52,197 nt of DNA from a virus (Duplodnaviria; Caudoviricetes): IMG/VR virus record IMGVR_UViG_3300027779_000040, positions 1 through 52,197 of that record; one strand, given 5' to 3'. This document shows, one piece after another, positions 11,535 to 52,197 of this stretch. A program made the position numbers and the translations under genes. The notes under the pieces were generated by a model, which had not been told where the DNA came from, did not search any database, and worked only from the letters and a program-made list of their open reading frames with translations. The stretch's first letter is position 1. Each line of letters begins with the position of its first letter.

Positions 11535-12824
11535 ATGGGATACGCAGACCAAGTATTACAAAGAGCCGGATTAGGTGGGGAGACACAAAGACTCCAACAG
11601 GCTATGTTGCAAAGTGAAGGGATGAAGGGTGCAACAAGATTTTATAAAGCTGTAGAAATGTACTACAATGACCCTGCGTCTTTTAGTAATGAAGCTTGGG
11701 ATGAATTGCAAATTATGGCGTCTCAGCATGGAATCAGAGTTCCGTCCAATCCTAATGATAAGGCTACTGCTCTAGAGAACGTAGGGGCATCAATCATGGG
11801 CGCAATAGATGGTATAGTCCTTGACTTGATACCTGATTCTTTATACTCAAGTAGGCGCACAGAGACTGCTCGTATGGCAGGTCAAATTACAGGAGTCATA
11901 GGCTCAGTAGTAGGTTCTTTAGGGGCTATGGGACTTATGAGAGGTGGAATGCATGGATTGTCAAGGGCTGGTAGCTACATAGCCGCTAGGCTTGGTGCAA
12001 ATCCATCTGGTGCAGTTGCTATGAAAGGTGCAATAGATGCGGCTAAAAAAGTAGGCGGAAATAAGGCTGTAAATTGGGTAGCTAGTAACATGACCTTGCC
12101 GGGTATACTCACTAAGTGGGGACCATCCGCAGTTACAAGTTTTTCACAGCTTACAAAACGATTTGGTTACCCTTTAACTGGTAAATTTGTTAAGGAAGCT
12201 ACTAAACAATATGGAGACGATGTAGCAGGGAGACTTGTTCAAATTGCTAAGACGGGCTCTGTCGATGATGTAGTTGCGGCATCTGCTAAATACGGAGATG
12301 ATGTAATCATCCAAGCTAAAGAGTCTCTAAAGAGAATGGGCAAGGTAGGGGATGATGTATCTGTAGATATAGCAATGCAAGGAACAAAGGTTCCTGATAT
12401 AGCAACGAGTAAGGTACAGGCAATAATTGATAAGGTAGGTGGAGTGACTGCCAAGGGTGCTGGAAAAGAGTTTGACCCAACTAAGATAGCTCAGATGAGT
12501 ATGTTTGATGGTGGAGCCGCAGGACAAGTTTCAATAGCACAGGGCAAAGGCTTAATAAATGCTCTTAAGGAAGGTATGTCACAGGGTAAGGGGATACAAG
12601 AAATTATAAAAAAATCTGGATTAGGAGGTAAGCCTGCTAAGACTTTAGAAACATTATGGAAAGACCCCACACAGAGGAAAGACCTTTTAAAACTTATGGC
12701 TGACACGAGTAGAGACCAGCCCGGAATGATTGGAGATGTAATGAATCTCATTGGGTTGGGAGTAGTTGGAGGTATCTCCACATACGATGCTGTTTCTGCA
12801 AGCTCTGGTAGGGAAGATTTTTAA
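11535..12824 (+). CDS. Probable ejection protein (A/G/K-rich with amphipathic/TM segments)
   Basis: Composition, position, and N-terminal module shared with the virion RNAP. Confidence 0.65.
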   Translation: MGYADQVLQRAGLGGETQRLQQAMLQSEGMKGATRFYKAVEMYYNDPASFSNEAWDELQIMASQHGIRVPSNPNDKATALENVGASIMGAIDGIVLDLIPDSLYSSRRTETARMAGQITGVIGSVVGSLGAMGLMRGGMHGLSRAGSYIAARLGANPSGAVAMKGAIDAAKKVGGNKAVNWVASNMTLPGILTKWGPSAVTSFSQLTKRFGYPLTGKFVKEATKQYGDDVAGRLVQIAKTGSVDDVVAASAKYGDDVIIQAKESLKRMGKVGDDVSVDIAMQGTKVPDIATSKVQAIIDKVGGVTAKGAGKEFDPTKIAQMSMFDGGAAGQVSIAQGKGLINALKEGMSQGKGIQEIIKKSGLGGKPAKTLETLWKDPTQRKDLLKLMADTSRDQPGMIGDVMNLIGLGVVGGISTYDAVSASSGREDF

Positions 12825-15800
12825 TGTCAACTGGCAGTTACTATCCTGAAGAAATAGAAGGGGAACACTTTAAACCATTCGTTGATGAAGGTACAATAAA
12901 GGGGCTGATTCAGCATTATAAAAATGACCCAAAGCCATTTTCCGAAGACAAATTAAAGACACTCGAGCTTCATGCTCAGCATTATAAACTTCCCTTCGCC
13001 AGAAGTGATGCCGACCAACACGGTAGAGTTTCTGGTATTCTTCAACAGGCTGGAGCCGGATTTTGGTCTGGCTTTACGACCTTTAATGTAGGCGAAGAAC
13101 CGAGAGATGAATGGGAGGGGATAGCTCGTAGTATAGGGCATCTTGCTGGATTTGTTGGTTTCATCCCCTCCATACCTAAGAAAATATTAGCAACTCTTCC
13201 TAAAGCATCTAAACTAAGAACTATGTCAATGGCATTGGCAAAAGTTAAAGGACAATCTGTGCCTATGCTTGGTGCTAAGTTAGTACAGGACAAGGTAGCC
13301 CCGATAGCTAATAAAGCTTTCGCTCAAGCTATGGCTATGAGAGGTGCGGCAACAGCTGATGCGGCTGGATTTTTAAATCAAGGATTAGTAAAAGATTTAA
13401 TTGGTGGGGCATTTCATCTTGGTGTAGCTAGTTCTATAAGTTCGTGGCAGTATGGTATAGACGAAATGATGAGGTCGTTCATAGGTGGTGCGGAAACAGG
13501 TTTTGTTTTCAGAGGGATAGGTAATGTTGTCCAGACGGGAAGTAAAGCGGCTGACGCATCCATAAGAATGGTAGCATCTAGTGCCTATACAGGCTTGCCA
13601 GCTACTATGAGAGGAGCTACAACTCCTGAACAGGTATACGAATATCTCCTCGGTGCCTATTTCGGTTTAAAGGAAATGCCCTACCATAAAAGAGATGCAC
13701 AGAAACTTATAGGTAAGGCTTTTAAGGAAGGCAAGGCTGGACAACCTATAGAATTGATGCCTGAATTTGGTGAAATGGACTCCACCACTAAGAAAAATAC
13801 TATTGAAATGGCTGAGAAGATATGGGGTGAAGTATCTGCGGCTGGAGGTGCTACTCCAATTACGGGTAATATCATGTCTTATGAATTGATGAATAAGTTT
13901 GGATTCAATATTGAAGAAGCAGAGAAAATCGCTAAGGAGTATATTGAGCGTGGTGGAACCCTTAAAGATATAGAACCATTCTTAGATAAGCCTATAACTG
14001 ACAATGGTGAGTTACGGAAGTCACAGAGAGGTTCACAAGAAGACCTTGATATGGAAGTATCTACTGACTCGTCTTCTTATATGTCAGTTCAACAGAAGTT
14101 GGTTAATTATATACAGAATACTTTAGGTTATAAATATACCGAGATGAAACCTAGAGAGCAACAAGATGCAGTTCTTGAAGATGCTATGGGTCTACAGAAA
14201 ACATGGCTAGAAATTTTAAAGAAACAAAGAGTAGAGATAGCTGATAATGATTTCAAAGATGTCTCTCCTGCTGGGGCTACTAATAAAATGTTGGAGCATT
14301 TAGCAGAGAATCTAGGCGTTGCTCCTACAGAAGCTGATTGGAACTTTTGGAGAAATAGGGAGATTCAATCTCTTCAGTTATCTAATCAGCCCGTAATATC
14401 TGCTAGTATAGATTTCAATGGAGCCCTTAATGTTTATCAGTTAAATCCAGAGAGACCAATGAACCTTGCTGGAAATATGAAATATGTTAAGCAAGAACCT
14501 CTGTCTATGGAAGACGCTTATGGGAGAGCATATACAAGGGAAGGCTATGACCCTGCTGAACTAAGGGGTGGTGCTATACACCAATTTCTTGACCATGCTG
14601 TAGTCCAAGATTCATATACTGGCAAGACTAAAGACATGAGTCTACTAAGGTTAAAACAACATTTCTTTGGTGAGCAGATGAGAAGAGTTGGCGAAGTAGA
14701 CGAGCAAACAGGAACTGAATTTCAATATACAGATGCTACTGCTAAAGCTGAAAAAGCATTTAATAACTTTCTCTATGGAGTAATGGACGCACAGTGGAAT
14801 AGGAAAGAATCAAAAGGCGGTGCTCCTAATCAAATGTATTACTTTGGTGGAAGAGGAGATGCGGAGAGATTATACTTTGTAAAGGTTCATCCAACCGTTG
14901 CTAATATTCGCACTATTAGTGAAGGCAGATTGAAATCTCTAACTAATGAAATAAATAAAGTGTCTGCTAAGATTGGCAATATAGAAGTGACTGAAAGTGG
15001 TAAGACAAGGAATGTAAAACTTAAAGATATATTTAATTCAGAGTGGGCTCTTTTTCAAACGACTGTTAATAAAGGAAAGACTGGAGAGTTTAAGAAAAGA
15101 GGAAATGAAATGTTTGCTTCGGCATTTCTATCCAATATAATGTATGAGTTAGATATGAATGGCTTTGAGATGAAGAAGGGCATAAGACCTAGCGAGATTA
15201 AAAAGTTCTATGCTACGATAGGCGATAGTAAAAATGACTTTATTGATACTGCTAAAGCTTTCAATAAGAGAGCACAAATCTGGTTGAATACTGGTGTATC
15301 CCAAAATAAAGATATGATTATCCCTGCTCTACAAGCCGCAGGATGGGATGATAAAACAACAGCAGAAGGTAAAGCTAAAGTTCTTATAATAAATGACAGA
15401 AAGATGGCTGATGAAGTAGGCGTCATGGCTAAGAATTTAGAAGAAGGCACTGATGGTGCTTTGTTTATGACTTCCGAATATATGCTTGCAACAAATATTG
15501 ATATGGGGCTACCCAACGAAGGACATAGTAACAAAAGTTTTATTGTTTCCCCCAACAAGCGCAAAGGTGCAATGCTGGGTAAGTACATGATACATGAAGC
15601 AGACCCAGAGATGGCAAAGTGGATGCGTAAAGAGAAGGTACATATTATAGCCTACAAGAGTGGTTTAAAGCAGAGAGGCACAAGAAAGAGCAGTGACGTT
15701 TATTATAAACCACATGGAAAAGGGTATGAGTTTAGTGATGGCTGGAAAGACTCTGTACATAGGATAAATATGGCTGACATTAAGACAGTCATTACCGAAA

Positions 15801-18800
15801 AGACTGATAATCACTTTCTTCACCCACAAAAGATACCTAAGCAGATGCAGAGTCTCCTTACAGAATTCTCATTCAATCCTGTTAAGCCTGAGATTATAGA
15901 TGATTTTTTTAATACTACATCAAGGGAGAGATTCTTTGGGAATAGGGTTATAAACGAAGAAGCAGAAGCTTACTTAGCCAACCCATCGAAAGAAGCAAAG
16001 GAATCTCTTATAAGAAACCTTGATGAAATAGGCATACCTACTGTATTGAAAATGTTAAAGAATCCTAAGACATCAGAGTTTGCTGTAGAAGCGTATAGGA
16101 AAATGCTATCTAAAGAACAAGAAGTAGCTAATGCAGAGTTTTCTGAAGGCGAGATTGAAAAAGCTACATTTGAAATGCAGAATGATACCAGACAAGAGTA
16201 TAGGTCAGCACATGATACAATTATGAATTTATCAAGTGACAAATCTCTTGCGGCTAGTATGCATAAGTCGGTAAAACATTATCGTTCAAATGTTATAAGG
16301 AATTATCTTCTTAATCAAGTAACTAGACCTACGATAAAGAACTCTTTTATATCAAGGATGCGACCTTATACCCCTTGGATGTGGGAACAGAGAGGAAAGT
16401 ATGGTCCTACTGCTAAGTTAAATGAAACAGGGGGGGACAAATTGTTCTTCCTTGATAATGGTTTTAAAGAATTACCATTAAAAAGCCACGTTTTTGGTGG
16501 CAAGGTCTCGGGAAGACTGGGTGAGATGAAGTTAGGTGAAGCTTGGGAGAGTTATGTGGACGGTAAGTTCGATAAATTTCCCAAGCTCAAAGCTGAAATG
16601 GAAGATGTGCTTGAAGCTGTTTTAATGAGAGTTCCTATGGACTCAATGTCAGGAGCGAGAGTATTGAACTTTGCTGGGTTCACTGGTGTAGATGGGTTAG
16701 GGGTCTTATTACATCCAAGGGTAATGAGAGCATTGGGTGGAGCAGACCTTGATGGTGACAAGGCTTGGGGATTTTTCGGTGGTAAAAGCGAGAGTGGTGC
16801 TGGTGAAGGTATGAAAAAGTCTTGGAAGAATATGTATAAAGACCAAGAACTAGAGTATGGAGAAGTAGGCACTAGTGCTAAGAAATTAATTGACCCAGTA
16901 ACTGGTAAACCATACTATGAGGAATTTTTAGATGACAGAGACCCATTAGCAAAGGATAGAATAGAAAACCCCGGACTAAGGTGGTCTCCTATGGCTAGGA
17001 TGACAGCATCATTGGGTGCGGCTCAAGGTCGTAATATGTTAGGACCAGCTGTTGTTAATAAAGCTGTTATAAGTGCGGCTTTCTCTGAATTAATGAGCAG
17101 ACCAAATCAAAGTTATAGCTATACTTATGAAAGTTTTAATGGGGAAAAGAGAAAAATATTAATGACAGCTAGGTCTGACCCTAAAGATATTAAGCGTCAG
17201 AGAGAAATGGGGAAAGTTTCTATTCACCTTCCAGCTGACCCTATGGATGAAGCTGGGTTGAAAGATATGAATTCTTTCTTTAGCTTGATGGCTGATAGTG
17301 CTTTTAAATACAAAGATGTCACTGACCCCAATAGACATTTCGAATTATCAAACGACCCTAAGTCAAGGGAGTGGATGGGAGACCATTCTACTAAACGTGC
17401 AGGGTTGAATCAACATTTCTCTAAAATTAATCAAGTATTATATGGTAGGAACTGGGCAGAAGAAAGAAGATGGACACCGGGTGAGATTCATAGTGGGCTG
17501 TCAAGTTCATGGGATTCATTACACCAAGGAGAGAAACAGGGTGGACTCTATAAAAACTTAGCTAAGTTATTTCATAATCTTGATTGGACAGAAGGGATTT
17601 TCTTTCGTGTGAATGAAACAAAACTTAGAGAGCTTTATAAGAACTTTCATAAGGAGTGGGAAAACAATAGAGAGTTACAGGACATTCTCCAAAGAACTGG
17701 TAGGAGCGTATGGAACAATGAGAAAGAGAAGTTTAATCCTTTACTAGAATTTGTACTCACAAGAAAACTACATGATGAGAAAGTATTGAAGTCTTATCTC
17801 TTAGATACTAAGCAAAATGAAAAATTATTTGATGCTTTCCCCCAGTACACAGAGAGAAAAGGTTATAATCCTAGGAATTTAAGACAACGTGAAAGAATTC
17901 TTAGAGACATGGTACATAAGGCTGAAGACTTTGTTGTCAATGACCTTAGTGACATGGTGTCTATGAGATTTATTAGGAAATTCATGGAGCCTATTATGGC
18001 AAGGAACAATGCTAAGGGTGAGAAGATTTCTAAAGAAAAAATTATATTAGGTCTTCATCATATGAGTGAAGATATAAAGTCTCAATCTTATTTTAAGGGC
18101 ATAGATAGAAAGAATGAGTCAGGTTTACAGGGTAATGAGTTTGAATTAACAGCTAGTCAGCGTGAGTTTTTTAAGTTAATGGGCTTAGAAAGGGAGGTAG
18201 AACAAAAAGATTCTGCTATGTTAGACCAGTTCCAGATAGATGCTAAAATTAGTACTCTGAAATTAAATATGACTGACCCTGAGAAAAGATTGTTTGATGC
18301 GTTTCTTTTAGGAACATTAAAAAAGGGTACTCAAACCGAGATAAATAAAGCTACTGAACATGCTAAACAAACATACGTTAATGAAGAAAAATTTCCACCC
18401 CAAGTATTAGAAGCTTTGGAGATTTTAAGGCAAAAAGGGGCTAAAACAGCCACATCTAACCTAGGGTTCGTTTCTAGTTCGGTCTCTAAGGGCATGAAAA
18501 GAGCCTTCTGGAAAGAATATGAGAAGTTATTTGATAGTTCTACTAACTTTTTCAGTAAGAAAGAGACTAATGATATAAAGAAAGACGCTCTAAAGGGTGA
18601 AGCTGAGCTTTCAAAAGAAGAACCAAGGAGTATTCTCGACAAAGAAGGCAATGTTATCAAGGGTACTGCTCTTGAAGAAGCCACATTTGATGTAGAAACC
18701 CAGACATACTTAGAAGAGGCGCATCCTTTTAAAGGTATTCTTTCGTCTAAAGCTTTGAAGGGTCCAAAATTTAAATTAAAGGGTGAGGCTATGGAGATAG

Positions 18801-21800
18801 TTCTTTCCTTACAAGAACATTTCCGTAACAAGTTTAACAATATGACTGGTCGTGGCATGAACAAGCTTGTTAGAACGATGTTTAATAAAAACATTAATGA
18901 CATGAACTTAGCTGACTGGCGTACTATGGATAACATACTATCAGAGATTGATGGTGGTCAGTGGTGGAGAAAAACTTTGAAGTATGTAGATGACAATCAA
19001 TTCCTACCATCTATGACCCCGTTTCATCATCACATTTTTCCTGAAGCTACTAACAAAGACTTGATGAGAAAAGAAATCATCCTAGTCGCTAAGCGTGGTA
19101 TCTATAAAGATAAGCATGGCAATGTATTAACTGGTGATACTGCTCAGCCAACACAGATAGGTGAGATTTTACAACAGTTCATAAACATGAATAAAGAATG
19201 GGCTACTGGTGTACACGAGCAACGAAAGAATGAAATTAGTTCGGAGCTTTCTCCTTACTTAGAGTCTATTGAACAAGGACCTACACTATGGAGAATAGCT
19301 GTTAGGAGAATGGAGCAAGGAATGACATGGCATCTCAGAGAAAAATATCAGAATGATGCTACTTGGGCTCTTTTAAAAGAAACATATGAGAAACCTTGGA
19401 GAGACATACAAAAGAAACACGATTGGGAAAATCTACAGAAAGAAACATTCCAAGTAATTACAGCAAACGGCTCCAAGACGATGACTGGGCTTGATGTTGT
19501 TGAGAAAATTACAGATACTATAGAAATATGGAATAAGAAAAATCATAAGCTTATCCGTGGTGACGTAGAAGTAATTGACAGTTACCTTAATATGATAGGG
19601 AGAAGTTATCATTCAGACTCTAAGTCTAAATCGCTATGGAAAAACCCTGAGAATTTTATAAACGATAAAGAAAATCTGCCAAACTTTAGAGTTGAAGACC
19701 CTAATGAATCTAAATACCTTTCTGATGTATTTAAGAAGACATTCTGGTGGGGTGTTAAATCTGAAGGTGGAAAATCTGAAGCAGAGATAAAGAAAGCACA
19801 GGGTGAGTATCAAAAATTATACAATCAATATAAACAAGAGAAGTATATAGCTAATATTCGTGGTCTAGCGGCTGTACTTGATTATCGTCATCAGTTAAAA
19901 TTTGCTGAGGGTAAGGAAGATGTCCAAAACTCTAGAAAAAGAATGATGAATAGACTATTCAAAGATATTCTTGAAGCTAATGATAAGGGTGAAGTATTTC
20001 ATCAGAATTTAGGAATAGATGGTCTTCGCATATTATCAAGAGAGATTATGTTAGCACAGGTTAGAGACCCTAAGGATAGGGAACAAATAGCTAACTCTAT
20101 GTCAGTACATACTACTGGCTCATACCCATCAAGGATATACTTTCCACACTTGATGTTTGATAGGAAAATAGCTGAAGCACAAATGGAGAAAGCTCTTGAA
20201 GTCATATGGGCTGACCCTAGTAAAGATATTAAGGATAAGAACAGGGAGATGGATAGAATAATCTTCCACACTAGACAAATGACTGGTGATTGGATTCCAC
20301 AGACTGATGTATCAGACCAATGGCAAGCATTGAATGAAGGACTACAGAGGATAGGAGAGAAGAAAAAGAATAGAATTCCTAGAGAACATATGAATTGGTT
20401 CAAGACACATAAACGTGCAGGTAATCAGTACTCTAGAAACTCTCATATACCCGGTTGGAATATTGAGTTTGAAGCATACGTTCAGTACATGAAGAACCTT
20501 ACGGATGTACACTATCAATTAATAAGTCAGTTGATGTCTCGTACTTCTATGATAAGATGGAAAGAACGGATGGCTGAAAGGTTTGAACATCCAGATACAA
20601 AACAAGTTAAGAAGGAAGACCAGCAATTAATTAATAGATGGGAAAACTTTTTCAATCTATATATCACTCAATCTATGGGCTTACCTTCACAGATACCTGA
20701 GCATGTCCTTAATGACCCCGGCATGAAAATTAAAGGGACTCCTTATGCTTGGTTCGCTGACAGTGAAGTTAAGAAAAGATTAAATAAAATAGCAAAAAAA
20801 CTGGGACTAGATAAGAATATTATAAAAGAAAAGTTTCCAGAGGTTGCGGCAGAATATCCAGAGATGGCAGAGAAATTTGACTTTGCTGACCTACAAAGAT
20901 TCAGTGCTTTAGAGGCTAAATTAGAATTAGCGGCTCTACTAGCTCACCCTAAATCATCCGTTACAAACTTGTTTGGTGGTACGGTAAACACATTAATATC
21001 AACTGGTTGGCAACACTTTAAAAATGCTCGTGATGTAGAGTATCTTATGAAGAATGTTAACTCAAAGTTTACAAAGAAACAGGACTGGGAGGATTGGGTC
21101 ATCAAGCTTGGTGTAGTAGAGGAGTTCTTACTTTATGAAGCAGGGATTAATCCAAAGTTTAAGACTGGTAAGTGGAAGAACTTTATGGATGATGCTATGG
21201 CTAGGTTGAGTAAAGACCCTGAAATGGCTGATACAACCTTAACATCCCTTGCTAGTAAGCATGGAATAACTGAGTCTGTATTTTCTAAAGCGGCTTGGTT
21301 CATGAGAAGACCTGAACGTACACTACGGCGTGACGCTTTTTTAGCTCACTATCTACAGGCTAGAGAGAAATTTGGTGGTGCTTTCCAAAAGTTTGACAAC
21401 CCTATACTTATACAGATGGCTAAGAAGGGTGTGAAAGGTACACAATTCTTATATAGTGCACCATTTAGACCGCCTTTTTCAGCAAGTTCCGCTGGTAAGG
21501 TGTTCACTAGGTTTCAGACTTGGGCTTGGAACTCTGTCAGATTTAGAAGAGAAATTATAGAAGAAGCTGATGCTCGTGGATGGCAAAAAGGTTCTGTTGA
21601 GTTCGAGAGGTATAAACGTATGGCTACTGCTGACTTATTCATGCTTGGTATGGCTAATATATTCTTGTACTCTATCTTTGATAACGCACTACCAGCTCCT
21701 TGGAATTGGATACAAGACACAGCTGACTCATTGTATGGTGATGAAAGAGAAAGAGAGAGGGCTTTCTTTGGTCACCCACTCGGTCCTGTTCAAATTATTA

Positions 21801-22102
21801 CACCGCCTGTCTTACGTTTATTACCAGAGATGTTTAAAGCTATGATTGAGGATGATTACTCTAAACTAGCAGGTTATACTATTCCAAGTTACTTCCCTTT
21901 TGGAAGAGTGGCGAGAGACTTGGTTGGTCCCGGTGGTTTATATGAGAATCCTTATAGAGGAGTAGAAAAACTTACTGGTTTCCCTTACATGCAAGCGGCT
22001 AGAGAGTTCGGAGCATACCGTGAAAAAGAAGGTAGATACCCTAGAGGAATATTAGATTTAATTTATCAGCCATTCGAAAGAGATAAAGAACCTTCTGACT
22101 AA
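12824..22102 (+). CDS. Giant virion-associated single-subunit two-barrel (double-psi beta-barrel) RNA polymerase
   Basis: 3092 aa; catalytic GGADLDGD (DLDGD aa 1308-1312, nt 16745-16759) preceded by MRVP; upstream TDG...GKYMIH...SGLK motifs; located in the ejection module. Confidence 0.85.
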   Translation: MSTGSYYPEEIEGEHFKPFVDEGTIKGLIQHYKNDPKPFSEDKLKTLELHAQHYKLPFARSDADQHGRVSGILQQAGAGFWSGFTTFNVGEEPRDEWEGIARSIGHLAGFVGFIPSIPKKILATLPKASKLRTMSMALAKVKGQSVPMLGAKLVQDKVAPIANKAFAQAMAMRGAATADAAGFLNQGLVKDLIGGAFHLGVASSISSWQYGIDEMMRSFIGGAETGFVFRGIGNVVQTGSKAADASIRMVASSAYTGLPATMRGATTPEQVYEYLLGAYFGLKEMPYHKRDAQKLIGKAFKEGKAGQPIELMPEFGEMDSTTKKNTIEMAEKIWGEVSAAGGATPITGNIMSYELMNKFGFNIEEAEKIAKEYIERGGTLKDIEPFLDKPITDNGELRKSQRGSQEDLDMEVSTDSSSYMSVQQKLVNYIQNTLGYKYTEMKPREQQDAVLEDAMGLQKTWLEILKKQRVEIADNDFKDVSPAGATNKMLEHLAENLGVAPTEADWNFWRNREIQSLQLSNQPVISASIDFNGALNVYQLNPERPMNLAGNMKYVKQEPLSMEDAYGRAYTREGYDPAELRGGAIHQFLDHAVVQDSYTGKTKDMSLLRLKQHFFGEQMRRVGEVDEQTGTEFQYTDATAKAEKAFNNFLYGVMDAQWNRKESKGGAPNQMYYFGGRGDAERLYFVKVHPTVANIRTISEGRLKSLTNEINKVSAKIGNIEVTESGKTRNVKLKDIFNSEWALFQTTVNKGKTGEFKKRGNEMFASAFLSNIMYELDMNGFEMKKGIRPSEIKKFYATIGDSKNDFIDTAKAFNKRAQIWLNTGVSQNKDMIIPALQAAGWDDKTTAEGKAKVLIINDRKMADEVGVMAKNLEEGTDGALFMTSEYMLATNIDMGLPNEGHSNKSFIVSPNKRKGAMLGKYMIHEADPEMAKWMRKEKVHIIAYKSGLKQRGTRKSSDVYYKPHGKGYEFSDGWKDSVHRINMADIKTVITEKTDNHFLHPQKIPKQMQSLLTEFSFNPVKPEIIDDFFNTTSRERFFGNRVINEEAEAYLANPSKEAKESLIRNLDEIGIPTVLKMLKNPKTSEFAVEAYRKMLSKEQEVANAEFSEGEIEKATFEMQNDTRQEYRSAHDTIMNLSSDKSLAASMHKSVKHYRSNVIRNYLLNQVTRPTIKNSFISRMRPYTPWMWEQRGKYGPTAKLNETGGDKLFFLDNGFKELPLKSHVFGGKVSGRLGEMKLGEAWESYVDGKFDKFPKLKAEMEDVLEAVLMRVPMDSMSGARVLNFAGFTGVDGLGVLLHPRVMRALGGADLDGDKAWGFFGGKSESGAGEGMKKSWKNMYKDQELEYGEVGTSAKKLIDPVTGKPYYEEFLDDRDPLAKDRIENPGLRWSPMARMTASLGAAQGRNMLGPAVVNKAVISAAFSELMSRPNQSYSYTYESFNGEKRKILMTARSDPKDIKRQREMGKVSIHLPADPMDEAGLKDMNSFFSLMADSAFKYKDVTDPNRHFELSNDPKSREWMGDHSTKRAGLNQHFSKINQVLYGRNWAEERRWTPGEIHSGLSSSWDSLHQGEKQGGLYKNLAKLFHNLDWTEGIFFRVNETKLRELYKNFHKEWENNRELQDILQRTGRSVWNNEKEKFNPLLEFVLTRKLHDEKVLKSYLLDTKQNEKLFDAFPQYTERKGYNPRNLRQRERILRDMVHKAEDFVVNDLSDMVSMRFIRKFMEPIMARNNAKGEKISKEKIILGLHHMSEDIKSQSYFKGIDRKNESGLQGNEFELTASQREFFKLMGLEREVEQKDSAMLDQFQIDAKISTLKLNMTDPEKRLFDAFLLGTLKKGTQTEINKATEHAKQTYVNEEKFPPQVLEALEILRQKGAKTATSNLGFVSSSVSKGMKRAFWKEYEKLFDSSTNFFSKKETNDIKKDALKGEAELSKEEPRSILDKEGNVIKGTALEEATFDVETQTYLEEAHPFKGILSSKALKGPKFKLKGEAMEIVLSLQEHFRNKFNNMTGRGMNKLVRTMFNKNINDMNLADWRTMDNILSEIDGGQWWRKTLKYVDDNQFLPSMTPFHHHIFPEATNKDLMRKEIILVAKRGIYKDKHGNVLTGDTAQPTQIGEILQQFINMNKEWATGVHEQRKNEISSELSPYLESIEQGPTLWRIAVRRMEQGMTWHLREKYQNDATWALLKETYEKPWRDIQKKHDWENLQKETFQVITANGSKTMTGLDVVEKITDTIEIWNKKNHKLIRGDVEVIDSYLNMIGRSYHSDSKSKSLWKNPENFINDKENLPNFRVEDPNESKYLSDVFKKTFWWGVKSEGGKSEAEIKKAQGEYQKLYNQYKQEKYIANIRGLAAVLDYRHQLKFAEGKEDVQNSRKRMMNRLFKDILEANDKGEVFHQNLGIDGLRILSREIMLAQVRDPKDREQIANSMSVHTTGSYPSRIYFPHLMFDRKIAEAQMEKALEVIWADPSKDIKDKNREMDRIIFHTRQMTGDWIPQTDVSDQWQALNEGLQRIGEKKKNRIPREHMNWFKTHKRAGNQYSRNSHIPGWNIEFEAYVQYMKNLTDVHYQLISQLMSRTSMIRWKERMAERFEHPDTKQVKKEDQQLINRWENFFNLYITQSMGLPSQIPEHVLNDPGMKIKGTPYAWFADSEVKKRLNKIAKKLGLDKNIIKEKFPEVAAEYPEMAEKFDFADLQRFSALEAKLELAALLAHPKSSVTNLFGGTVNTLISTGWQHFKNARDVEYLMKNVNSKFTKKQDWEDWVIKLGVVEEFLLYEAGINPKFKTGKWKNFMDDAMARLSKDPEMADTTLTSLASKHGITESVFSKAAWFMRRPERTLRRDAFLAHYLQAREKFGGAFQKFDNPILIQMAKKGVKGTQFLYSAPFRPPFSASSAGKVFTRFQTWAWNSVRFRREIIEEADARGWQKGSVEFERYKRMATADLFMLGMANIFLYSIFDNALPAPWNWIQDTADSLYGDERERERAFFGHPLGPVQIITPPVLRLLPEMFKAMIEDDYSKLAGYTIPSYFPFGRVARDLVGPGGLYENPYRGVEKLTGFPYMQAAREFGAYREKEGRYPRGILDLIYQPFERDKEPSD

Positions 22103-24051: not shown

Positions 24052-24221
24052 TCTACTTCATCTATTATGATATGAGATAGTTCATTTTGTATGTCTATCT
24101 TGTTTTCAATACGATGAAGTCTCCATATAATGCTAATTAACATAGCTAACATCATTACCATTGAAAATTCCCAATATGGGAAATATTCTGTACTAAATAG
24201 TGCTTCCCAGTAATATCTCAT
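24048..24221 (-). CDS. Small membrane protein (57 aa, not in ORF track)
   Basis: MRYYWEALFSTEYFPYWEFSMVMMLAMLISIIWRLHRIENK...; AAGGAG RBS. Confidence 0.7.
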   Translation of the reverse strand: MRYYWEALFSTEYFPYWEFSMVMMLAMLISIIWRLHRIENKIDIQNELSHIIIDEVE

Positions 24222-24370
24222 TGTTTTACTCCTTCTCTTAGGTTATCAATCCATTGTTTAGCCATTGACATTAACATAGCTACAATGAATATACCAATAG
24301 CCCACATTACGACAGCGATACCTAATACTAATAGGTTTGCTATCCATTCTGCAATATCAAACATTATCAT
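24218..24370 (-). CDS. Small membrane protein (50 aa, not in ORF track)
   Basis: MIMFDIAEWIANLLVLGIAVVMWAIGIFIVAMLMSMAKQW...; AAGGAG RBS; ATGA overlap with the next gene. Confidence 0.7.
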   Translation of the reverse strand: MIMFDIAEWIANLLVLGIAVVMWAIGIFIVAMLMSMAKQWIDNLREGVKQ

Positions 24371-33491: not shown

Positions 33492-33509
33492 AATTCACTC
33501 CTGTGATAT

Positions 33510-33611
33510 ATCAAACAAGCCCCTTAACTAACTGCCAAGTCTTCCAGACTAATTAAATTAGTTTGAAATTAGTTTCAGAGGCTCATTTGATTGGTTCGTC
33601 TCTTACGAGAC
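33510..33611 (-). promoter_or_regulatory. Structured intergenic RNA between Ubl and E2 genes
   Basis: gtctc-GTAA-gagac hairpin plus 15-bp stem atcaaatgagcctct/aggggcttgtttgat with G-U pairs on the minus strand. Confidence 0.6.
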
Positions 33612-33622
33612 TGATTTAAAAA

Positions 33623-33886
33623 CTATGCACCTTTTGCAAGGTTTACAGCTTTTCCTGAAAGTACAACATCAATAGATGTCGCACCCGACTCCACTTTGGA
33701 CTTCTGGAAAGAGACATAATCTCCATCCCGAAGGTCTTGTGTGGCGGTGGCTTCGCTTTCATTCACGAAGATTTTAACGCCATCCAAGGACAAGTCCCAA
33801 GTTTGAGCAATGGATGCCGGTGTATTCGACTCCATTTCATGCACCGTACCACCTGAATGATACGATATTGCAAAGATATTAGCCAT
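33623..33886 (-). CDS. Ubiquitin-like (beta-grasp, ThiS/MoaD-like) protein with C-terminal extension
   Basis: 87 aa; IFVNESEA....DLRDGDYVSF....VESG68 fits the ThiS/MoaD pattern VN...L.DGD.V.f...V.GG; AGGAG RBS; first gene of the E2-JAB-E1 cluster. Confidence 0.8.
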   Translation of the reverse strand: MANIFAISYHSGGTVHEMESNTPASIAQTWDLSLDGVKIFVNESEATATQDLRDGDYVSFQKSKVESGATSIDVVLSGKAVNLAKGA

Positions 33887-33897
33887 GGACTAACTCC

Positions 33898-34116
33898 TTA
33901 ACTCTTCAGGGTTTCGTGGTTATCCCGTATCGTTAACCATTTCTCTACTGAACCCTGATTGTCAGTAGTATGGTTTTTAGTGCGTATAATAACGAACTTA
34001 GACACAGGTCTTTTTTTCCGACAGATAGCTAATATAAAATCAGCACTTCTTTGAGTAGAATAGATGCCTATTAACATCTTCTGTCCTTTGAATTTCTCAC
34101 ATAACATCCAATTCAC
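33898..34116 (-). CDS. Hypothetical basic protein
   Basis: GTGA-coupled to the upstream gene. Confidence 0.6.
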   Translation of the reverse strand: MNWMLCEKFKGQKMLIGIYSTQRSADFILAICRKKRPVSKFVIIRTKNHTTDNQGSVEKWLTIRDNHETLKS

Positions 34117-34304
34117 CAGTCTATCTCACTGTCGAGATTTTCATCTAACTCTATAGCCTTGTGAAAATAAGGAGTCATTCTAAGAAGACCGTTTAATTCA
34201 ACGGATTTTTCTCGGTAAAACTCCAGTTTATTTAAGATGTGTACATGCTCTCTTAGCAGGAAAACATAACCTATTAAGAGTACTACAATGATGTATATCT
34301 CCAT
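34113..34304 (-). CDS. Small membrane-anchored protein
   Basis: N-terminal TM IYIIVVLLIGYVFLL; AAGGAG RBS. Confidence 0.7.
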   Translation of the reverse strand: MEIYIIVVLLIGYVFLLREHVHILNKLEFYREKSVELNGLLRMTPYFHKAIELDENLDSEIDW

Positions 34305-34332
34305 GACATACTCCTTGTGTTGTTAAGAAAAT

Positions 34333-34659
34333 CTTTGTGGGTAGTCAGACTAACCACTTGAAATATAAAAATGCTGACCTACTGATTTTCACAGCTCTTA
34401 CTTGTAGTATATCTACTATGGCAAAAGCCAGCATTTTTGATCGGTTTAATAAAGAGAGGTCTGACCTTTTTCACAAGTCTAATGCACATATCTTGCTACT
34501 CTATTATCAAACTGGGTAAAGGTTTTCAGGAATCAGAATCCGGCTTTCCGGCTACTTTAAAAAGAGCCATGTCACGCAGTCGGTATATTACTGCTGGCTT
34601 TACCCAATTCCTGAAAGTAGGATAGTATTTCTACTGTTCCTATGTAACAGACAAGTGCA
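34333..34659 (-). ncRNA. Candidate ~330-nt two-domain structured non-coding RNA
   Basis: Multiple long stems, a GAAA tetraloop, G-U pairs read on the minus strand, interleaved 10-bp and 9-bp helices; occupies a gene-free gap. Confidence 0.65.
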
Positions 34660-34667
34660 GAGGGAAT

Positions 34668-34898
34668 CTATTGATTGTCGTGCTGATTATCCGTTACATT
34701 ACATTTTTCACATTCTAATCTTTCCAATCCAATAGTAGGAAAGTCTTCATAATACATGACGGGATGACCCAGTGTGTAGTCTATTTCCCATACAAGATTA
34801 CATGTCTTGCAATACTTCAAGCGTTTGGATACACCTTTATTCTTTTCCTTATCCATGCTCTTACGGCTATCCCCACCAAGAAATTGTTCATATCTCAT
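34668..34898 (-). CDS. Zinc-finger-like hypothetical protein
   Basis: CKTC..VWE...Y.DFPT.G..R..CEKC. Confidence 0.7.
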   Translation of the reverse strand: MRYEQFLGGDSRKSMDKEKNKGVSKRLKYCKTCNLVWEIDYTLGHPVMYYEDFPTIGLERLECEKCNVTDNQHDNQ

Positions 34899-35104
34899 TT
34901 CTCAAACTCCAATGATTGCTCTATTTGTGCATCAGCTACTTCATCAATTTCACGCTCTATTTGTTGAGCACGAGAGACCATTTCTTCAAGTGTAACACCT
35001 GTCTTAATGAAATACTCAGTGGTGCTAACACCGAGTACATCATCCAGATATTCACGAATTTCATCAATATTAATTCGTTTCTGAGACCTATTCCAGTCTA
35101 CCAT
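34895..35104 (-). CDS. Hypothetical protein
   Basis: Overlap-coupled within the leftward operon. Confidence 0.65.
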   Translation of the reverse strand: MVDWNRSQKRINIDEIREYLDDVLGVSTTEYFIKTGVTLEEMVSRAQQIEREIDEVADAQIEQSLEFEK

Positions 35105-35325
35105 TCTAATTCAGGCTCATCTACTATTTCAAGCAGACCTTCTTCAAGAAAAGCATCCATATCCCTGTCAAACTCATACTTTCTACGAGCCGTTCTTCTT
35201 TGACGGGCATTACCTGTAAACTTAGGCATAGTGACCGCTTTGCTATCAACAGAAATTACTGATACTTTCGTTGGGACATATTTCAGTACCAACCTTTTTA
35301 CTAAATTAAGGATGTATTTCAACAT
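35098..35325 (-). CDS. Hypothetical protein
   Basis: AAGGAG RBS; contains GNARQRRTARRK. Confidence 0.65.
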   Translation of the reverse strand: MLKYILNLVKRLVLKYVPTKVSVISVDSKAVTMPKFTGNARQRRTARRKYEFDRDMDAFLEEGLLEIVDEPELEW

Positions 35326-35525: not shown

Positions 35526-35591
35526 AAGATACCGATTGGACTGGCGTTCTTTATAAGCAACATTACTTGCTCACCAGCCAACCGACATCTT
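35526..35591 (-). promoter_or_regulatory. Long intergenic RNA hairpin
   Basis: Minus strand aagatgtcggttggctgg...ccagtccaatcggtatctt, 18 bp with 3 G-U pairs and an internal hairpin. Confidence 0.65.
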
Positions 35592-35727
35592 AACCACATT
35601 TATCATCCCATAGATTGTATGTTATGTTAATTTCGCATGGATGTATTACTCCTGTTATTAACCACTAAAAAAGATATAACAACACTAACGGATAATGCTT
35701 GCGCATGAGTTCCGTGTAATAAAATAA

Positions 35728-35776
35728 CCCCTACCCAACCCACCCATGAATAAACATAGGCAGGTTAGTGTAGGAA
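35728..35776 (-). promoter_or_regulatory. Long intergenic RNA hairpin
   Basis: Minus strand cctacactaacctgcctatg-tttatt-catgggtgggttgggtagg, ~19 bp with several G-U pairs. Confidence 0.65.
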
Positions 35777-35788
35777 GATTAGACAGTC

Positions 35789-36223
35789 TTATGCTGTAGC
35801 GACTTTGTCAGTTTTGGCGTGTTCAACCAATACGATGTCCAAAGCATTCGCAAGTCCTTTAGATGTAGAACTGATAGTCCCAGAATCCTGTTGGAACTTC
35901 ACGCTTGTCATCTTATGGCGTTCGAACCTTCCAGTCTTTTTAGAGTCGTAGCCTGTTACATCTTTCTCGGTTACAGAGAGAGTATAACTGCATACATGAC
36001 CAGAAGGTAACGTTACAACCCAATTATAGACTTTATCAGCCATGTTAAGCTTAAACCATTCGAATACGGACATCTCTACTCCTTCTTCATCTTTGATGAC
36101 AGAGTCGATATTGAGTATAGAGAAGTAGGTCATACCCCACTCATTTATACCTGAACGCAGTTGAATGTCTATACCTAATACGGTGCAGATAGACATAAGA
36201 TTGTCAATTAGTGCTTGTTTCAT
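35789..36223 (-). CDS. Hypothetical protein, first gene of the leftward arm
   Basis: AAGGAGTG RBS; 144 aa. Confidence 0.75.
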   Translation of the reverse strand: MKQALIDNLMSICTVLGIDIQLRSGINEWGMTYFSILNIDSVIKDEEGVEMSVFEWFKLNMADKVYNWVVTLPSGHVCSYTLSVTEKDVTGYDSKKTGRFERHKMTSVKFQQDSGTISSTSKGLANALDIVLVEHAKTDKVATA

Positions 36224-36300
36224 TTATTCACTCCTTAAGTGATTATGGTTATTAGCAATCTCATCATTATATGATACCACATAACAACGAGAGATAGGCA

Positions 36301-50948: not shown

Positions 50949-51107
50949 ATGAGACTAACTATTGAAACTAATGAGTTAATGCTGATGATATCGGCGTTAG
51001 AATCAATTCAAATAATGGGGAAAGACAGTATTCAGGTTGCGGAGACTCTTATAAAACTGTATAAAGCGAGAGATAAGGACAGCCCTTCTGTGGAGATACC
51101 TAAATAA
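50949..51107 (+). CDS. Small fibre-associated protein (52 aa, not in ORF track)
   Basis: MRLTIETNELMLMISALESIQIMGKDSIQVAETLIKLYKARDKDSPSVEIPK; AGGAG RBS; TAATG overlap. Confidence 0.7.
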   Translation: MRLTIETNELMLMISALESIQIMGKDSIQVAETLIKLYKARDKDSPSVEIPK

Positions 51108-52197
51108 TGGCTACAAACTGGGAACGAGTTATTACAGAGGCTAATGACGCAGACTATAAAAACGATAGTATAGAAGCTGGTGATATACCGACACTTAATC
51201 AAAACACTACAGGAAGTTCTGCTACTTGTTCTGGGTTAGCAGGAAGTGCCACAGTTTTAGCAAGTGCGAGAACTATAGCAGGAGTGTCTTTTAATGGTTC
51301 AGCGAATATATCATTAAACAATAATGCTATTACAAATGGTGCTGGATACACAACAAACACAGGAGACATTACTGGAGTAACTGCTGGAACGGGTATGTCA
51401 GGAGGGGGTAGTTCAGGAGCAGTAACTCTGAATTGTTCTATCACAAATAACAATCAGCTAACAAATGGTGCAGGATATACTACTAATACAGGAGATATCA
51501 CAGGTGTAACGGCAGGTAGTGGAATGTCTGGTGGTGGGACAAGTGGTTCAGTCACACTAACTAACGCATCTCCAAATATTGTTTATCCAGCAGAAACAAA
51601 ATCAACTATAAATGCTCTTGATATTACTGAACTTGGAATTGTAACTAGTGGTCAATGGAGAGGAACTACAGTAGATGCTTCCTATGGTGGTACTGGCTTA
51701 ACTAGTACATCAACATTATTAAACTCTAATGTAACAACAGTATCGGGTAATGCAGGTACTGTTACTAATGGTGTTTATACTACAGGAACACAGGATATTG
51801 ATGGAGATAAGACATTTTTGGCGAAAATCTATGCCGATGATGGTATTGCGATAGGTGGGACAGGAGCCGCCAATACTCTTGAAGATTACGAGACAGGCTC
51901 TTGGACTCCTGTATTAACTAGCGGTTGGAGTCACTCTTATGATAGTACTACTAATAGGTATGTAAAGGTAGGTAGCTTTGTTCATTTATGGGGACGTATT
52001 GATGGTTTTTCTGGTTCTTCGTCAACAGCAGATTTACAAATAACAGGTCTCCCCTTTACAGTTAAGCATAGTGCAGTTGGTGGTGATTGTATGTTAAAAT
52101 GGATTTCTTGGAATAGCAAAGCTGGAAATGTCTCTCCGTATGTAAATACATCTGAAATCTTATATTTCTTTGAAACAGCTTCTGCATATGAATGGTC
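51107..52197 (+). CDS. Tail fibre protein (389 aa when joined across the junction to 200-278)
   Basis: Open from ATG 51107 to the window end; ARTIAGVSFNGSANI, two NGAGYTTNTGDITGVTAG repeats, ANTLEDYETGSWTP...YVKVG..V...GLPF. Confidence 0.88.
   Translation, partial: MATNWERVITEANDADYKNDSIEAGDIPTLNQNTTGSSATCSGLAGSATVLASARTIAGVSFNGSANISLNNNAITNGAGYTTNTGDITGVTAGTGMSGGGSSGAVTLNCSITNNNQLTNGAGYTTNTGDITGVTAGSGMSGGGTSGSVTLTNASPNIVYPAETKSTINALDITELGIVTSGQWRGTTVDASYGGTGLTSTSTLLNSNVTTVSGNAGTVTNGVYTTGTQDIDGDKTFLAKIYADDGIAIGGTGAANTLEDYETGSWTPVLTSGWSHSYDSTTNRYVKVGSFVHLWGRIDGFSGSSSTADLQITGLPFTVKHSAVGGDCMLKWISWNSKAGNVSPYVNTSEILYFFETASAYEW
51999..52197. repeat. Terminal direct repeat, right copy
   Basis: Matches 1-199 with four substitutions. 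Confidence 0.97.

Follow-up and report, generated by a model that had tools for sequence, protein, structure and literature searches.

A conserved and covarying 60-nucleotide element in a structured spacer upstream of a ubiquitin-like gene of an uncultured marine phage

Genomic context and coding content of the spacer

The window, i.e., the whole stretch of DNA analyzed here, is a complete IMG/VR virus record of 52,197 bp from a podovirus-like marine phage that encodes a P22-type portal, an SU10-type capsid protein, and terminase. The phage is present in marine and seawater sequencing runs, and no cultured relative was found. A minus-strand gene run extends from approximately position 36,220 down to 23,000. 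It begins with small early genes, which are followed by a spacer (here termed the gap), by genes for proteins of 63 and 72 amino acids (aa) and a ubiquitin-like (Ubl) protein, and then by genes for a 544-aa protein, a JAB protein, a ThiF-type E1 protein (distinct from the element E1 described below), an AAA_24 protein, and a primase-helicase. The 63-aa open reading frame (ORF) is the first gene of a 63aa-72aa-Ubl unit and has its own Shine-Dalgarno sequence (Table 1); the Ubl protein is 91% identical in metagenome locus L002. An earlier, sequence-only reading of this region had proposed a single structured RNA of ~330 nucleotides (nt) with two domains, lying two small genes upstream of the Ubl gene, and the 63-aa and 72-aa genes do separate the gap from the Ubl gene.

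Table 1. Coordinates of the gap, its neighbors, and the features within it (window numbering)
Feature	Position	Strand	Description
Gap (noncoding spacer)	34305-34667	minus	363 nt; between 76-aa ORF (34668-34898) and 63-aa ORF (34113-34304)
Domain 1	34483-34659	minus	Window-specific hairpin cluster; closing helix 34659-34644 with 34499-34483
GAAA-capped hairpin	34618-34642	minus	Listed by the sequence-only reading; present in MFE fold
25-nt hub	34592-34616	minus	Abutting/overlapping B, A, and C segments, each with a perfect downstream complement
Helix B:B'	34616-34607 with 34533-34524		10 nt, perfect
Helix A:A'	34606-34598 with 34521-34513		9 nt, perfect; 13 bp in MFE fold via G-U pairs
Partners B' and A'	34513-34533	minus	Same order as B and A
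Helix C	34601-34592 with 34433-34424		Perfect 10-mer, absent from the sequence-only reading
E1	34447-34506	minus	Outer stem, 7-bp inner stem, 10-nt loop, 16-nt 3' strand; covariance-model match 34515-34443
Helix D:D'	34438-34429 with 34376-34367		Perfect 10-mer, absent from the sequence-only reading
Y-shaped stem (Y-stem)	34355-34438	minus	D:D' extended to 13 bp, enclosing two small hairpins; U-rich run to 34355
20-nt patch	34340-34359	minus	Identical (20/20, blastn) in L054, L057, and L058; absent from L056
Shine-Dalgarno sequence and start codon	34316-34311 and 34304-34302	minus	Of the 63-aa ORF; from sequence and ORF list
Downstream unit 63aa-72aa-Ubl	33623-34304	minus	63-aa, 34113-34304; 72-aa, 33898-34116; Ubl, 33623-33886

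Near the middle of the gap lies E1, a conserved element of ~60 nt that recurs in two other phage types, one represented by loci L054, L057, and L058 (L054 type) and one by L055 and L056 (L055 type). The gap is treated here as noncoding, as the sequence-only reading had assumed, and it contains no credible ORF. Its only sense ORF encodes 36 aa (34379-34489), two antisense ORFs encode 60 and 62 aa, and a Pfam search with all three gave no match. The 36-aa frame begins within E1, which holds its first 12 codons; the L054 type has these codons too, in a frame of 14. In the L055 type the start codon is lost, and the substitutions are compensatory for pairing rather than synonymous.

RNA-library contigs provide weak hints of how the region is transcribed. 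Contigs of two libraries span 63aa-72aa-Ubl as single pieces (33600-34303 and 33523-34293), and their downstream ends fall in the structured spacer after Ubl. Early-gene contigs of the same two libraries cover 35760-36265 and 35817-36264; an extended -10-like site (36279-36271) lies 7 nt before these ends, and a DNA contig runs across the point. The crossing DNA contig, together with the nearby -10-like site, indicates that contig ends in these libraries can mark a 5' end. By analogy, the ends at the Ubl unit give a weak hint of a 5' end near 34293-34330, weaker than that at 36265, as no DNA contig is listed that bridges 34303. In the X3 RNA library, one contig (34559-34834) runs from the 76-aa gene into Domain 1; no X3 or X4 contig is listed over 34304-34558 or bridges the gap, which is not counted against an RNA, as missing cover is no proof of absence. 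A sigma-70 scan found no sense-strand site inside the gap, and thus none for the Ubl unit or within E1. Other promoter candidates were one of sigma-70 or Bacteroidota type within E1 and a -10-like hexamer at 34367-34362; neither was adopted, as there is no consistent hexamer pair across the three E1 lineages.

Inverted repeats and predicted folds of the gap

The density of perfect inverted repeats in the gap is the highest in the genome. The gap contains four such repeats of at least 9 nt, compared with a mean of 0.27 across 429 windows of 363 nt; only four of the 429 windows hold at least three, three of these four overlap the gap, and the probability of at least three was 0.003 in 2,000 dinucleotide shuffles. 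Copies of the gap sequence elsewhere in the window were limited to chance 12- to 14-mers. All four repeats are perfectly Watson-Crick paired over 9 to 10 nt, with no G-U pair, and therefore hold no strand information.

Strand information comes from folding energies. The whole gap folds better on the minus strand (z = -2.65, with 1 of 100 shuffles as good) than on the plus strand (z = -1.11), and two G-U pairs in the Domain 1 closing helix become mismatches when read on the plus strand, so that the proposed minus-strand structure is borne out. The region thus folds better than shuffled sequence, with the caveat that its GC-adjusted MFE does not stand out among 216 sense-strand windows of 363 nt from this genome (rank 35; z = -1.06). 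Operon boundaries elsewhere in this phage are as structured as the gap or more so. The boundary spacers at 33492-33622 and 35650-35790 fold at z = -4.9 and z = -4.6, respectively, and each contains a long stem, that of 33492-33622 enclosing smaller stems, as the Y-stem does.

Every helix of the sequence-only reading was found where it had been placed, and when the two domains were folded separately, both gave the architecture that had been drawn. Domain 1 reached -53.5 kcal/mol (z = -4.10), which none of 200 shuffles equaled. Domain 2 reached -35.6 kcal/mol (z = -2.53; 3 of 200 shuffles as good), with its closing helices and a 13-bp stem topped by two hairpins. The GAAA-capped hairpin of Domain 1 has a near twin with a GAUA loop at 34418-34405; a pattern search returned only these two, with 0 and 1 mismatches, both within the gap, and the pair also appears as a direct repeat.

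The crossing helices center on the hub, whose B, A, and C segments have their partners downstream in the same order, so that the helices cannot all form together. Forced folds gave -93.3 kcal/mol for A (pair probability, 0.87), -92.5 kcal/mol for B (0.11), -79.9 kcal/mol for C (0.00), and -93.3 kcal/mol, equal to the MFE, for D (0.97). In these predictions A and B are mutually exclusive, near-isoenergetic alternative folds 0.8 kcal/mol apart and not a pseudoknot. Of the earlier proposal of a pseudoknot or a switch, the mutually exclusive helices thus stand and the true pseudoknot does not: by standard geometry, an H-type pseudoknot with linkers of 0 and 2 nt across helices of 10 and 9 bp would be sterically implausible. 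Near-equal-energy alternative folds are presumably common in RNAs of such length. Pairing of C would break the Y-stem, at a cost of 13 kcal/mol, and A/B switching leaves the Y-stem unchanged in the predicted folds.

The Y-stem itself folds at z = -2.43 (5 of 200 shuffles as good) and is a candidate terminator, attenuator, or processing structure. A terminator scan called no canonical intrinsic terminator in the gap, the Y-stem included. Unlike the short G+C-rich hairpin with a 3- to 8-nt loop, D:D' has a 52-nt branched interior and an A/U-rich base, followed by the U-rich run. Attenuator-type leaders, such as those of the trp type and riboswitch expression platforms, also rely on mutually exclusive helices. 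The gap resembles them in that the hub can pair with several downstream partners, in the exclusive folds A and B, and in the stem and U-run beyond these; it differs in that the A/B switch leaves this stem alone and in that no conserved aptamer or leader peptide was found.

Hairpins with a terminator-like stem downstream are also reminiscent of lambda nut/N antitermination, in which case the twin hairpins would be bound by a small arginine-rich protein whose gene lies ~430 nt upstream, allowing read-through of the Y-stem. The components can be named: a 75-aa ORF (35098-35325) with an arginine-rich stretch matches phrog_271, “anti-termination protein N-like” (E = 6.6e-4; 2.6e-3 for a 43-aa form), the GAAA and GAUA hairpins are exclusive to the gap, and a boxA-like heptamer at 34567-34561 is followed by a hairpin. 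Each component is nevertheless weak or no better than chance. The heptamer is about as frequent as chance predicts (10 found versus 8.25 expected), and the hairpin loops are of 4 nt, while the classical boxB loop has 5 nt. Arginine-rich sequence matches are prone to be spurious, and the 75-aa protein matched nothing in PDB or Pfam and had no homologue in 51 loci or in records G004 and G003. A nut-type site is regarded as very improbable.

The folding results also bear on the proposal of one dedicated RNA of ~330 nt, or a cis-acting switch toggling between A and B, that would act as a riboswitch-like regulator, ribozyme, or multimerizing RNA. The stability of both domains, the strand asymmetry, the closeness of the A and B folds, and the exceptional repeat density are in its favor, and self-complementary sequences in the E1 loop and 3' strand could pair between molecules. 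On the other side stand the ordinary GC-adjusted energy, perfect helices that are uninformative as to strand, and the likelihood of close alternative folds at this length. Known families offer no assignment: Rfam 15 gave no match in the window at the gathering score, and at E values up to 10 it gave four chance-level matches in 34000-35000, none within the gap, which leaves the ribozyme and riboswitch suggestions unsupported.

E1, the patch, and the spacers of other phages

Searches with the gap as a unit found no relative. Neither the gap by itself nor the gap with 4.5 kb around it gave a blastn match among 50,697 phage records, blastn and nhmmer searches of the gap against the 51 loci gave chance-level matches only, and a 19-nt hub pattern had no match in viral contigs. 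The 544-aa protein has only three relatives, including P0002 (58% identity) and P0003 (50%), and none in viral contigs; in L002, the single metagenome locus, the sequence breaks off at the stop codon of the 63-aa homologue and so excludes the gap. Judged from sequence comparison, E1 and the patch appear to be the only pieces of the gap that recur elsewhere, the compared loci being those other than the P0002 and P0003 contigs and the gap of L002.

The first trace of E1 came from contigs of DNA run X8, which match just 34452-34502 and diverge on both flanks. A 19-mer from this stretch led to five viral loci of two phage types, with 98% identity over 50 nt in L054, L057, and L058 and 87% over 60 nt in L055 and L056, where there is also a diverged tandem copy. 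The loop and 3' strand are conserved, the latter containing an 11-nt palindrome, and the outer stem differs in sequence across all three lineages while its pairing is retained. Pairing is maintained in 88.5% of alignment cells, compared with 37 to 51% in slid controls. Double changes affect 7 of 16 pairs, a number equaled in 2 of 500 shuffles, from an alignment of only five distinct sequences; the core differs between the L054 and L055 types by five substitutions, four of which make up two compensatory doublets of the inner stem, a stem that ends in G-U pairs. The orientation of E1 is that of the flanking genes in three of three lineages.

A covariance model of E1 (R1) has one match in the window (79.1 bits; E = 2.5e-19). 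G001, G004 (93% complete), and G005 have one copy each, whereas G002 and G003 have two in tandem; a search of 26 other sources gave nothing convincing. Neither E1 nor the E1-bearing spacer of L056 matches Rfam 15. A first exact-pattern scan of 185,579 species genomes for a host E1 had no match, and the sole match of a second scan of the same number, L066, scored 17 bits over part of R1 and was rejected. An 18-mer E1 pattern was found only in L053, inside a 703-aa ORF, and was dismissed as a chance match.

The phages that carry E1 have little else in common. No protein common to all E1-bearing records was detectable, with G003 being only 29% complete. Nucleotide comparison of the window with G004 shows just two shared regions, a tail fibre/lysis block (68 to 90%) and E1 (98% over 50 nt), and G003 has nothing but E1 in common with either of them. 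The flanks of E1 are unrelated among the three lineages. In the L054 type, a PC4-like gene (of the single-strand-binding type) stops 20 nt upstream of E1, and the next start codon follows 18 nt downstream of it; in the L055 type, it is upstream of a PD-(D/E)XK nuclease. Compensatory changes in lineages sharing nothing else indicate that E1, at least, is under selection. E1 is thus a real conserved and covarying element, present in at least three otherwise unrelated marine phage lineages, and it may be a new small phage motif, its newness being its absence from Rfam 15.

E1 cuts across the proposed two-domain architecture, as the helix closing Domain 1 has its 3' strand, and the two helices closing Domain 2 have their 5' strands, inside it. 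The L054 type has E1 but no Domain 1, so the two-domain model does not explain the conservation of these closing strands. In the window, E1 alone folds weakly (-8.6 kcal/mol), and its 5' half is paired with the beginning of the gap in the MFE fold; imposing the inner stem costs 4.4 kcal/mol. Domain 1 has no counterpart in the loci compared, and no homologue among them keeps Domain 1, Domain 2, or the crossing helices, so that the claim of a single ~330-nt two-domain RNA is not supported. Conservation and covariation were sought in relatives and found for E1 only. With nothing but E1 and the patch conserved and E1 retained without either domain, a single dedicated RNA or A/B switch is considered improbable.

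The patch forms the 3' closing strand of what had been drawn as Domain 2. It holds an 11-nt palindrome and could pair over 8 bp with the palindrome of E1, and the two palindromes have a common core. Such palindromes, together with four long repeats that are symmetric on both strands, could be read as a DNA-level element, either a replication origin or a cluster of protein sites bound as double-stranded DNA or as extruded hairpins. The occurrence of the element in single copy per genome and its early/replication-block location, near the PC4-like gene in the L054 type and the nuclease in the L055 type, fit such a role. However, the G-U pairs of the E1 inner stem and the Domain 1 closing helix exist on the sense strand only, the compensatory changes preserve pairing and not sequence, unlike those in a sequence-specific dimer site, and E1 orientation tracks transcription. 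Furthermore, there are no iterons, the direct repeats being short two-copy families. We consider a DNA-level element rather improbable.

Comparison of the patch among phages also suggests how the gap was assembled. The patch corresponds to the last codons of a 45-aa membrane protein that has a homologue elsewhere in the window (24218-24370), and in the L054 type the identical stretch ends an E1-led three-gene unit, just before a canonical terminator. The interior between E1 and the patch thus comprises three small genes in the L054 type versus 88 nt in the window, so that what varies lies between two conserved ends, E1 and the patch. In the L055 type, the spacer with E1 measures ~500 nt (z = -2.65) and has three or four long-range perfect repeats; that of L056 differs from L055 by one 92-nt insertion with 9-bp terminal inverted repeats and is otherwise identical. 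Repeat-bounded units in the gap are of similar size (72 to 94 nt). The L056/L055 difference suggests that repeat-bounded units of 70 to 120 nt are gained and lost as blocks. As units of 72 to 121 nt with perfect inverted repeats of 9 to 12 bp, one of them present or absent between L055 and L056, they are MITE-like; they differ from MITEs in that those of the gap are single-copy, overlap each other, and are without transposase or demonstrated target-site duplication.

The same observations would be accounted for by a functionless recombination scar, in which the remnant of a deleted small-gene cassette and inverted-repeat-flanked insertions are tolerated in a permissive spacer. The three genes flanked by E1 and the patch in the L054 type, the membrane protein codons, and the indel with its terminal repeats and matching unit size are what such a history would leave behind. 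A mere scar would not be expected to keep E1 with compensatory changes across lineages sharing nothing else, and 363 nt is a long spacer for a tightly packed genome. This explanation is unlikely.

The nearest described system to E1, judging from its description in two papers, is the promoter-early stem-loop (PeSL) cassette of T4-type phages (PMC2839356, PMC4122927). PeSLs are conserved noncoding stem-loop motifs between small orphan genes of the early region; they mark junctions between otherwise unrelated sequences, have been proposed as recombination points, and are many-copy repeats with a consensus sigma-70 promoter and an effective terminator (PMC2839356, PMC4122927). As described there, PeSLs resemble E1 in that E1 sits at junctions and, with the patch, brackets differing contents. 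They differ from it in that E1 is present in one copy per genome, or two in tandem (G002 and G003), has no sigma-70 hexamer pair, is without the U-run in the L054 type, and shows compensatory base changes.

Relatives selected by synteny carry a different element in the corresponding position. The primase-helicase led to 50 viral loci with ~58% identity, 12 of which extend upstream of the Ubl gene and have a spacer of 103 to 261 nt with long stems, three small genes upstream of Ubl. In 11 of the 12, this spacer contains a conserved motif, M, whose covarying outer stem of 13 bp encloses two hairpins, one variable and one invariant, the latter with 7 bp and a 3-nt loop. Pairing in M is 96%, compared with 30 to 55% in slid controls, double changes are seen at four pairs, and G-U pairs of M exist on the sense strand only. 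The M-bearing loci do not match Rfam 15. The M pattern, with up to three mismatches, does not occur in the gap, and a covariance model of M (R2) found nothing in the window at E values up to 10 with filters on; with filters off, the best match was 8.2 bits (E = 0.85). By eye, without statistics, the 5' arm and part of the 3' arm of the GAAA hairpin resemble the M outer stem. The presence of different structured elements in syntenic relatives suggests that the slot upstream of the Ubl block is habitually structured, with varying contents. Like the phage and marine motifs curated in Rfam, E1 and M, which belong to uncultured marine phages, are intergenic and short, with conservation and covariation; they differ in that no Rfam 15 family matches the window, the L056 spacer, or the M loci.

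A composite spacer as the preferred reading

The gap is best explained, at about an even chance, as a composite, recombination-built operon-boundary spacer and not as one dedicated 330-nt RNA. From 5' to 3', it would consist of the Domain 1 hairpin cluster, E1, the Y-stem with its U-run, the patch, and a leader of the Ubl unit with its Shine-Dalgarno sequence. Transcription from the upstream small early genes would enter the spacer and be ended, attenuated, or processed at the stems, for which the Y-stem and U-run are the best candidate, in parallel with the other operon ends of this phage. The Ubl unit would have its own 5' end just downstream of the stems. E1 would be recognized in cis, most likely in the form of RNA, and the sequence upstream of it in the window could pair with its 5' half and hide it. 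As no factor is visibly common to the E1-bearing phages, the reader of E1 is probably a host factor.

Several features fit a composite spacer poorly. A plain terminator-plus-promoter spacer needs no three repeats tiling a 25-nt hub, Domain 1 alone is far more stable than shuffles (z = -4.1), no Ubl-unit promoter was found by the scan, and the Y-stem is not a canonical terminator. A further reading, which we find unlikely, is that E1 belongs to a new class of small structured RNAs that move horizontally between unrelated marine phages and are read by a host factor or small ligand to control early or middle genes, and that in this phage it has acquired an upstream “anti-E1” strand and a bistable Domain 1, which hide or expose it. 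The gap would in that case be a lineage-specific RNA switch around a mobile core.

The composite spacer illustrates how striking helices in one genome can mislead: what looked like one RNA is here a patchwork with a conserved core of only 60 nt. E1 and M are candidate RNA motifs, neither of them in Rfam, from uncultured marine phages; unrelated phages share the former, and 11 related contigs carry the latter upstream of their Ubl cassette. The layout of E1 and the patch, with the 92-nt indel, provides an example outside the T4-type phages of short noncoding motifs marking recombination junctions. Both motifs precede poorly understood early genes, including a phage ubiquitin-like conjugation cassette, and offer handles on how it is switched on.

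Motif M in syntenic relatives and early transcription

A conserved and structured motif, here called motif M, is present in 11 of 12 syntenic relatives of the phage, three small genes upstream of the gene for the ubiquitin-like (Ubl) protein. Its outer stem has 13 bp, covaries and occurs in at least four sequence versions; this stem encloses two hairpins, one variable and the other invariant, the latter with 7 bp and a loop of 3 nt. The ribosome-binding site of the next gene lies ~25 nt downstream, and motif M has no match in Rfam. One relative (L007) additionally carries a tRNA gene upstream of the early small genes (3329-3401, + strand; 68 bits), and the window itself contains no tRNA. At the start of the non-coding gap of the window (34618-34646, - strand), a stretch resembles, by eye, both arms of the M outer stem, with a GAAA loop replacing the entire M interior. 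This stretch may be a miniaturised remnant of motif M; the covariance model of the motif gives it no score.

Very stable structures are found at two other operon ends of the window, and RNA-library contigs end within or beside both. Upstream of the first early gene, the stretch 36264-36279 (- strand) includes an extended -10-like site (36279-36271). In two RNA libraries, contigs stop 7 nt beyond this site, at 36265 and 36264, which points to a start of early transcription there.

Positions of motif M and of very stable operon-end structures
Feature	Sequence	Position	Strand	Description
Motif M	L045	4058-4141		
Motif M	L027	4231-4314		
Motif M	L043	4397-4473		
Motif M	L036	4142-4229		
Motif M	L024	1681-1768		
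Motif M	L031	3232-3347		
Motif M	L021	3915-3981		
Motif M	L007	4057-4141		
Motif M	L018	2543-2616		
Motif M	L009, L023 (further carriers)			
Very stable structure	Window	33492-33622	-	Operon end after Ubl gene; 15-bp stem around branched interior; z -4.9
Very stable structure	Window	35650-35790	-	Operon end after 144-aa early gene; 19-bp hairpin with G-U pairs, U-rich tail; z -4.6

Element E1 and short conserved patches

A mini-ORF starts inside E1, the conserved two-stem element, and comprises 36 codons in the window (34379-34489, - strand) and 14 in L054 (oriented 1090-1134); the first 12 codons are common to the window and the L054-type phages, and in the L055 type no start codon is left. 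Adjoining E1, in non-coding sequence otherwise identical to L055 (8490-8491), L056 carries an insertion of 92 nt (6592-6683) bounded by terminal inverted repeats of 9 bp; it resembles a small unit that is mobile or prone to indels.

The 20-nt patch in the gap corresponds to the stop region of a 45-aa gene, the last in the E1-led cassette of phage G004. A 50-aa membrane protein encoded elsewhere in the window (24218-24370, - strand) is 40% identical to the product of that gene. In another spacer, contigs of DNA sequencing run X8 match only a ~33-nt stretch (35543-35575) and diverge on either side; like E1, this stretch could be a short piece of conserved non-coding sequence, the second of its kind.

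Other genes and the block shared with G004

A 75-aa ORF (35098-35325, - strand) has a good ribosome-binding site and an arginine-rich stretch weakly matching phrog_271, “anti-termination protein N-like” (E 6.6e-4), with no match in Pfam or PDB. A 556-aa protein (3155-4825, + strand) has HINT/intein-type matches below threshold, and a 3092-aa ORF (12824-22102, + strand) matches nothing in Pfam or PHROG.

The collagen-like tail-fibre ORF (51107-52195 joined to 1-278, + strand) runs off the record end and resumes at the record start, an arrangement indicating that the genome is circularly permuted. Across this ORF and the small lysis-type genes that follow (294-1356, + strand), including an Rz-like spanin match, DNA identity with G004 is 68-90%. 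The two phages otherwise have only distant structural-protein homologues in common (23-31% identity), and the similarity of the tail-fibre and lysis DNA suggests that they share a host.
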